Notes: generated by a model not told the origin, from the sequence alone. A stretch of 64,000 nucleotides of DNA from Escherichia coli (GCF_050920415.1 NZ_CP169309.1), one strand, 5' to 3'. Shown: positions 1,148 to 1,474, numbered from the stretch's first letter. A program made the numbers and translations.

Positions 1148-1444
1148 ATGGAATTTCTGATAGTTTTTGTTGTTGTTTTGGTCATCATTCTTTTTGTTTT
1201 GCTAAGCATTAGCAAAAAGCTATCTCAAATGATTGAACATAGCTCTAATCGCGCAAAAGAAGAAGAGCATCTAATTGATATAAAAGAGATTCTCTCTGAT
1301 ATAAAAATCACATTAGATGAAATAAAATACACAACAGATCTAATTGAACAGTATAAAATACCAACCCCAAACGAGAGAAAATCAATAGATCAATATCGTA
1401 TTGACTTAGAAATCGACGAAATGCTAAGCAACAGAAAGGACTAA
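1148..1444 (+). CDS. Small single-pass membrane protein in the rex position, co-oriented with cI (98 aa)
   Basis: GGAGGG RBS then ATG; N-terminal hydrophobic helix FLIVFVVVLVIILFVLLSI then charged helical tail; visibly AT-rich; terminator follows. Confidence 0.6.
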   Translation: MEFLIVFVVVLVIILFVLLSISKKLSQMIEHSSNRAKEEEHLIDIKEILSDIKITLDEIKYTTDLIEQYKIPTPNERKSIDQYRIDLEIDEMLSNRKD

Positions 1445-1449
1445 AAACA

Positions 1450-1474
1450 CCCGGCCTCAGCGCCGGGTTTTTCT
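1450..1474 (+). terminator. Intrinsic terminator ending the cI-moron (pRM) transcript
   Basis: CCCGGC-loop-GCCGGG hairpin followed by TTTTTCTTT. Confidence 0.7.

Follow-up and report, generated by a model that had tools for sequence, protein, structure and literature searches.

orf98, a small gene for a predicted membrane protein behind the cI repressor of an Escherichia coli lambdoid prophage, and its relatives behind other repressors

Results

The immunity region and the gene behind cI

The DNA analysed here (the window) is a stretch of 64,000 nucleotides from Escherichia coli, and its positions 1-2300 have the layout of a lambdoid immunity region as found in textbooks, the strand given being the one called leftward in lambda. 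A gene for a cro-like lytic repressor lies on the minus strand (64..309; phrog_35, E 5e-27). Its start is uncertain, as the 74-aa RefSeq homologue in locus L001 (named 'transcriptional regulator') matches a gene that begins at 288. OR, between cro and cI, consists of three perfect copies of the 14-bp operator ATAACnnnnGTTAT (325-338, 350-363 and 374-387), with a pR-like site inside OR on the minus strand (341..312); pRM would be located in OR as well, just upstream of cI. The cI gene on the plus strand (400..1107) encodes a repressor of 235 aa with an HTH and an S24 peptidase domain (phrog_4, E 6e-53), the counterpart of which in L001 is a RefSeq 'XRE family transcriptional regulator' (WP_000846394). 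Further along the plus strand are OL with two ATAACnnnnGTTAT operators (1643-1656 and 1668-1681), the pL-like promoter TTGACC-17-TATCTT that these operators overlap (1656-1684), a nutL-like site (1730..1770) and an N-like antiterminator gene (1879..2184; phrog_271, E 3e-36). The operator pattern, used in its 4-nt spacer form, matched seven times in the window compared with 1.7 expected, and five of the matches were those at OR and OL. The nutL-like site is composed of a boxA-like element of the rrn type, GGCTCTTTAACA (1730-1741), and a boxB-like hairpin, cccgccgaaatgcggg (1755-1770), both named after the boxA and boxB consensus. The boxB-like 16-mer is repeated identically and in inverted orientation at 14-29 on the minus strand, downstream of cro, and the two copies presumably mark nutR and nutL.

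The subject of this study, orf98, is located between cI and OL on the plus strand (1148..1444), begins with ATG and encodes 98 aa, a candidate bitopic membrane protein. The same CDS is present in the RefSeq annotation of identical prophages, and in every record its product is called a hypothetical protein. The gap between the end of cI at 1107 and the start of orf98 is 40 nt, and a Shine-Dalgarno sequence, GGAGGG, can be read 3 nt before the ATG (1139..1144). At most 5 nt after the gene follows an intrinsic terminator (1449..1474), in which a stem of 7 pairs, 6 of them G-C (hairpin at 1449-1468), precedes the T run TTTTCTTT. The hairpin folds with -16.7 kcal/mol (z = -2.95) and its shape is bidirectional. 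According to this arrangement the cI-orf98 transcript would be closed before OL/pL, nutL and N. With 31% G+C, orf98 is poorer in these bases than cI (43%) and the window as a whole (49%). From orf98 to OL (1475-1640) the DNA is non-coding and rich in C and A. Thus an AT-rich reading frame with its own ribosome binding site, same-strand position after cI and terminator ahead of OL/pL, as the first-pass annotation had described it, is found in every detail, and the slot equivalent to that of rex in lambda is now bounded by located operators, a pL-like site, a nut-like site and an N-like gene.

No promoter of its own was evident for orf98, and the DNA common to the homologous cassettes starts at the ribosome binding site. 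A promoter-like sequence, TTGGCA-17-CATAGT (9 of 12 consensus positions), is present within the 3' end of cI (1073-1101, plus strand), about 45 nt upstream of orf98. It lies in cI-specific DNA, and promoter-like sites in the region are no more numerous than in shuffled sequences, but the site could give rise to an independent orf98 transcript. In lambda, pLIT provides such an independent transcript for rexB. A moron in the strict sense has its own promoter, and since no promoter appears to travel with the cassette, orf98 is probably not an autonomous moron in that sense. Two traits agree with the earlier label of moron, the deviant base composition and a terminator that moves with the gene between immunity types.

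An Rfam scan of positions 1-6000 matched only the frameshift pseudoknot of an insertion sequence, so there is no known RNA at or after orf98. An anti-phage sRNA, svsR, was described in 2026 at the 3' end of cI in the lambdoid prophage NC-SV of E. coli NC101 (PMC12803456). The equivalent position here is about 1030-1107 of the window, at the 3' end of cI.

Several further features of the window were recorded. Directly after N lies a 156-aa ORF (2193-2663, plus strand) that belongs to PHROG 1636 (function unassigned; E 2e-110), a conserved gene of the early left operon. An IS3-family element of 1310 bp (2891-4200) is bounded by terminal inverted repeats of 25 nt and by a target duplication of 3 bp, ATC (2888-2890 and 4201-4203). 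It contains orfA (3820-4146) and orfB (2933-3820) on the minus strand and the ALIL frameshift pseudoknot (3749-3865). We take the element to be IS629/IS1203-like. It splits a pL-operon gene for a coiled-coil protein (2807-2890 joined to 4201-5088). The gene abutting that of a tyrosine integrase (11399-12469) encodes a putative acyl-CoA thioester hydrolase (PRK10531 family, presumably ybhC; 12604-13887), and this adjacency suggests that the prophage occupies the lambda attachment site. The remainder of the window is host chromosome.

Selection on orf98 and its occurrence in E. coli

Of 5426 complete E. coli genomes, 98 contain orf98 DNA, in all cases on the chromosome, and the gene is complete in 97. 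The carriers include pathogenic and commensal strains from many hosts. In strain 3CM (locus L003) an IS3-family element (2267-3697) splits the homologue and leaves a 75-aa annotated remnant, P0010. Comparisons of homologues with 61-77% protein identity, at which synonymous change is near saturation, gave dN/dS values of 0.10-0.24 for the whole gene and 0.06-0.15 for the C-terminal half. The chance of an open frame of this length is about 2e-4 on the basis of base composition, and the length was reached in one of 5000 shuffles. orf98 is a real gene under strong purifying selection.

Architecture of the predicted protein

The protein begins with an uncharged membrane helix (residues 2-21; Kyte-Doolittle mean over 19 residues 3.4-3.5) followed by two lysines, continues with a variable linker (about 23-43) and ends with a conserved acidic helix-turn-helix (44-96). 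Structure prediction by AlphaFold2 with the family alignment, a step the first-pass annotation had proposed, gave a two-helix model with a helix at 2-68, a loop at 69-73 (YKIPT) and a second helix at 74-96 (mean pLDDT 84). The tail contains 18 acidic and 13 basic residues, with a pI of 5.0. A single N-terminal transmembrane helix and a highly charged helical tail, both read from the sequence earlier, are thus borne out by the hydropathy and by the model. All members of the family have the four residues Y69, P72, D81 and E88. Ahead of the membrane helix they have a short flank that is acidic or neutral but never basic (ME, MD, MF, MS, MFDME and others), and basic residues are found after the helix. 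By the positive-inside rule these two features would place the N-terminus in the periplasm and the conserved domain in the cytoplasm, so that the acidic helical domain of roughly 75 residues is predicted to be cytoplasmic and membrane-tethered. To look at oligomerisation, the cytoplasmic domain was fused in tandem through a linker of 30 residues and folded, with a resulting pLDDT of 59 and pTM of 0.35.

The family and its place among known proteins

Over its whole length (residues 1-98 on profile positions 1-98 of 98) orf98 matches PHROG 18389 (function unassigned; E 1.1e-61), the only PHROG found at E <= 0.01. A word-indexed search of 5.8 billion proteins yielded 13 clusters, which were named only from E. 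coli and Citrobacter, and a profile search of 1.84 billion representatives yielded 17 family members. One outlier of 428 aa (P0026) was left out of the family alignment. All other members have 94-126 aa and share one plan, in which a membrane helix is followed by a helical linker that differs in length and sequence and the C-terminal module is conserved, with the pattern [DE]I[KR]Y[TV]TDxIExYKLPxxxERxx[IL]Dxxx[IV]DxE[IV]. When 100,044 species-representative genomes were scanned, a single family locus was found, in Pseudomonas gingeri, and the family is therefore rare outside E. coli prophages.

Attempts to relate the family to characterised proteins were not successful. No significant match was obtained in Pfam (with the single sequence and with all 20 members), NCBIfam or PADLOC, nor in the PDB by sequence (two profiles), nor by Foldseek against BFVD, PDB and AFDB50. 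The sole match in PADLOC-DB v2 was to ZorB/MotB (E 0.009, 13.5 bits) and covered the hydrophobic segment. This and the other sub-threshold matches, to MscL, DUF5385, DUF948 and designed coiled coils, were rejected as compositional, as they involved only the hydrophobic or coiled stretch. Direct comparisons by hhalign gave probabilities of 0.8% for RexB, 0.5% for RexA, with no match to a rex PHROG, 0.2% for SieA of P22 and 15% over 19 columns for PspB (with an approximate sequence of the latter); the profile comparison with orf59a of P22 was also negative. The family accessions and the PHROG identifier are not mentioned in the searchable literature as far as it was searched. The view that orf98 has no characterised homologue thus stands, and clear homology to a structural or housekeeping protein was not found in the family and fold searches either.

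Relatives behind cI repressors of many types

All members at least 34% identical to orf98 for which enough flanking DNA was available lie directly 3' of a cI-type repressor gene and on the same strand. In orf98 and the 11 other loci of this kind the distance from repressor to gene is 1, 1, 12, 12, 14, 15, 15, 20, 23, 40, 44 or 54 nt. Most of the homologous cassettes have a purine-rich block resembling a Shine-Dalgarno sequence (in L054 and L055 the gap is only 1 nt). The repressors themselves are diverse, since their DNA-binding domains fall into at least nine groups with a between-group identity of at most 54% and mostly of 14-30%. The cro genes differ among the loci as well, and all the cI partners have an S24 autocleavage domain. 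In most of the loci with a sufficiently long contig, the gene that comes next on this strand encodes a protein with an N-peptide domain. DNA similarity between the loci extends only from the ribosome binding site to just past the T run of the terminator, and the terminator block GCGCCGGGTTTTT is invariant in four diverged cassettes. The mobile unit therefore consists of ribosome binding site, ORF and terminator and apparently has no promoter of its own. An independent promoter would not fit into gaps of 1-20 nt, which argues for transcription together with the repressor and hence for expression in the lysogen. The earlier proposal that orf98 is expressed from pRM along with cI is strengthened by this recurrence of relatives behind at least nine types of cI at 1-54 nt, and also behind Mnt (see below); co-transcription of cI and orf98, with expression in the lysogen, is very probable from the gene arrangement.

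In several other prophages a small gene of 68-75 aa on the opposite strand lies convergently between the family gene and OL (L004 4324-4530, L006 2402-2611, L007 4479-4706 and L019 3861-4070, all minus strand; a DUF2767 protein in L006). It probably shares the bidirectional terminator. This gene is absent from the window, and a search of positions 1475-1640 for a remnant of it gave no significant match.

Exchange of cargo between cI and OL

A survey of what related prophages carry between cI and OL, as suggested by the first-pass annotation, showed that the slot is exchangeable. Prophages with an identical Cro and a cI that is 92-99% identical have other cargo in place of orf98, namely a Clp-fold serine protease of the SDH family with a 56-aa ORF (L017 3809-4882), or a DUF3024 protein that is a PADLOC candidate (PDC-S43) with a 177-aa ORF (L018 3746-4810). 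Locus L019, the cI of which is 79% identical, has no co-directional gene at this position and only the small antisense gene. Between the window and the protease-bearing prophage, homology ends at the stop codon of cI and returns at 1448, the start of the terminator region. Since prophages of the same immunity lack orf98 or carry unrelated cargo, the gene must be dispensable for the switch.

Relatives behind Mnt, in a conjugative element and elsewhere

Two viral contigs of the P22 type have a family member of about 30% identity 36 nt downstream of a homologue of Mnt (PDB 1MNT, E 1e-22). These genes are located between the genes for a DNA-transfer protein and the tailspike, on the strand opposite to both. 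In P22 the same interval holds mnt, orf59a, a terminator and sieA in this order (PMC10883804). Judged by gene order, the family has thus gained a place behind a maintenance repressor of another, unrelated class, at the second of the two loci that are classical for exclusion in lambdoid phages.

The Pseudomonas gingeri locus (L016) is an integrative conjugative element (ICE), as recognised by its MobH/PFGI-1 relaxase. Its cargo (2423-5178) encodes, in order, a 186-aa protein without assignment, a 269-aa protein matching PDC-S32, the family member (122 aa) and a pair of convergent genes, ParE/ParD-like by our own reading, and is flanked by the MobH relaxase gene on one side and the gene for a large membrane protein on the other. 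PDC-S32 is a candidate defence model of PADLOC, and its gene directly precedes the family member. For several remote members (L012, L013 and L015) the contexts were uninformative or not of phage origin. One remote member is positioned after a sigma-54 activator.

Discussion

Comparison with known occupants of repressor operons

The interval between cI and N is a mosaic hotspot of accessory genes expressed in the lysogen, such as rexAB, bstA, hex and HigBAC (PMC8585504, PMC7067206, PMC3564112, bioRxiv 10.1101/2024.02.24.581848). The geometry found here is that of the textbook and the concept of the slot is established, so an occupant at this position will not surprise the specialist. orf98 is best described as an uncharacterised passenger gene of a repressor operon, which is a known kind of gene. 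What is new here is the recurrence of one family behind at least nine types of cI, behind Mnt and in an ICE, and the exchange of slot cargo within one immunity type.

The RexAB system of lambda has the same slot and strand as orf98, a terminator before OL/pL and, in the case of orf98 by inference, transcription from pRM. However, it consists of a sensor and a multi-pass channel protein (144 and 279 aa), whereas orf98 is a single gene encoding one membrane helix, and there is no sequence relation between them (below 1% for both Rex proteins). RexB is an inner-membrane protein, and the pair acts in abortive infection, excluding T4 rII and other phages with loss of membrane potential.

BstA of the Salmonella prophage BTP1 and its relatives is closer in organisation, being encoded by a single gene directly downstream of cI with its own Rho-independent terminator; this gene presumably shares the cI promoter and keeps its synteny across different prophages (PMC8585504, PMC7067206). 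Transcription of bstA from the cI promoter was seen in all 17 conditions tested (PMC8585504, PMC7067206). BstA differs in moving to the sites of phage DNA replication and in having an anti-BstA DNA element, in contrast to the small and membrane-anchored orf98 product. With its 98 aa, no Pfam domain at E <= 0.001 and no significant PADLOC match, orf98 is probably not a homologue of BstA.

Hex of phage 434 is encoded by the second ORF of the pRM-cI transcript (PMC3564112), and it is by this operon position alone that orf98 is likened to it. Hex excludes the heterologous phage P22 and also stabilises lysogeny (PMC3564112), so passengers in the cI slot can have either role. It has 158 aa, and membrane association is not mentioned in that paper (PMC3564112), unlike what is predicted for orf98. 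For sieA and orf59a of P22 the likeness lies in the remote members of about 30% identity, which hold the same position downstream of mnt. SieA, however, is a protein of 162-164 aa for which three membrane helices are predicted, orf59a encodes a hydrophilic protein of 59 aa, and neither has a profile relation to the 98-aa, one-helix orf98 protein.

A similar plan of one N-terminal membrane helix and a cytoplasmic C-terminal effector or sensor domain is found in PdpSau of a Staphylococcus aureus prophage and in the lactococcal AbiP (PMC10127798). Each of these acts as a single protein, and PdpSau is encoded by a prophage (PMC10127798). Their cytoplasmic parts are basic, OB-fold-like nucleic-acid-binding domains of about 250 aa, in contrast to the acidic helical hairpin of roughly 75 aa in orf98, and there is no detectable similarity; the hosts and the genomic position are also different. 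With RexAB, BstA, Hex and SieA, orf98 shares position but not organisation, and in sequence no relation to RexAB or SieA was found.

Proposed function and alternatives

Among the functions considered, we rank first that orf98 encodes an inner-membrane accessory factor, made in the lysogen, by which the prophage would exclude other phages, as the gene fits the pattern of the cI-N hotspot with unusually strong positional evidence. This is a tentative proposal, which we hold with somewhat less than even confidence. Circumstantial support for a role in defence comes from the cargo of the slot, which is swapped within one immunity type and includes a PADLOC candidate, and from the Pseudomonas ICE, where a remote homologue adjoins a candidate defence gene. 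As the second gene of a pRM-cI operon, orf98 would be made in the lysogen, and the conserved helix-turn-helix (IKYxTDxIExYKLPxxxER..D....D.E) would bind a conserved partner where the inner membrane faces the cytoplasm. The partner could be a host membrane protein needed by incoming phages or a conserved early or ejection component of the phage, and as an outcome either the entry of DNA or early development could be blocked, or an abortive response could follow at the level of the membrane. The very low dN/dS of the cytoplasmic domain favours a conserved and probably host-encoded partner over a fast-evolving phage sensor or ligand. A more specific version of the proposal is that orf98 founds a new family of single-protein, membrane-tethered exclusion factors, found in cI and Mnt operons and in the defence cargo of conjugative elements, that act through the YKLP helix-turn-helix on a conserved inner-membrane factor of the host on which genome entry or early development depends in many phages; we consider this possible, with the balance of belief against it. 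Phage exclusion as such is weakened by the absence of similarity to any known exclusion or defence protein, by the suitability of the slot for roles other than defence (434 Hex stabilises lysogeny), by the high conservation of the cytoplasmic domain, which is unusual for proteins in an arms race, by the uninformative or non-phage contexts of L012, L013 and L015, and by the rarity of the family, with 17 representatives among 1.84 billion.

It is also conceivable, but in our opinion unlikely, that orf98 tunes the stability or induction of its own prophage in the manner of Hex, by acting at the membrane on a protease of the host or on one of its signalling components. Hex, which has the same operon position, damps the RecA-stimulated cleavage of the repressor (PMC3564112), and an analogous role would agree with the obligate coupling of the family to maintenance repressors of two classes, with the S24 autocleavage domain in all the cI partners and with the strong conservation of the cytoplasmic domain, which suggests a conserved partner in the host. 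However, the same passenger is carried by Mnt, which is not an S24 repressor cleavable with RecA, and the ICE homologue has no repressor next to it. In addition, prophages of the same immunity do without orf98 or have unrelated cargo, and for a role of this kind a membrane anchor is no obvious requirement.

Another explanation for a gene expressed, by its geometry, in the lysogen would be lysogenic conversion, in which orf98 alters envelope or stress physiology independently of phage attack (compare bor and lom). We give little credence to this. The presence of the gene in pathogenic and commensal E. coli of many hosts would suit such a factor, as would the position of one remote member after a sigma-54 activator and the resemblance of the N-terminal anchor and cytoplasmic coiled region to small membrane proteins of stress responses, to which weak sub-threshold architectural matches (DUF948 and DUF4446) can be added. 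But no family match was significant, the profile comparison with PspB was negative (15%), and the other known occupants of the slot are mostly directed at phages (PMC8585504).

A membrane-active toxin or an element of lysis timing, that is a holin- or antiholin-like protein or a small permeabilising toxin, could be imagined from the very hydrophobic nature of the one helix, the charged tail behind it and the weak matches to MscL, ZorB and MotB models over the membrane segment. This we regard as very improbable, since the gene is located in a constitutive repressor operon and not among the late or lysis genes, the cassette has no conserved antitoxin or antisense partner, and all the matches are sub-threshold and confined to the hydrophobic stretch of a helix that has no charged residue. 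Stator proteins of the MotB/ZorB type carry an Asp within their membrane helix. Finally, the idea of a spurious or decaying ORF without function, to which the name of hypothetical protein in every record and the IS-cut copy in one genome might lead, is effectively refuted by dN/dS values of 0.06-0.24 across pairs with nearly saturated synonymous sites, by an architecture and motif that are kept down to 24-30% identity, by a frame intact in 97 of 98 E. coli genomes and by the improbability of such an open frame in DNA of 31% G+C.

Significance

The cI-N region is a recognised hotspot of prophage defence, most occupants of which are still unnamed. The family described here is a very small and very simple one, with one membrane helix, one motif of roughly 50 residues and four invariant residues, and it has been placed repeatedly behind maintenance repressors. 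Its recurrence behind nine types of cI and behind Mnt, its conserved cytoplasmic motif and its lack of known relatives make it a clean and cheap target for study. Among 38 viral loci one is that of a Stx1a phage, and many of the carriers are STEC. If orf98 tunes induction, it would bear on how toxin release is controlled. If it excludes phages, it would represent a new exclusion module of compact size and with easy genetics, the target of which would probably be a conserved host factor, and it would be of interest for phage therapy and for the ecology of prophages that carry Shiga toxin.
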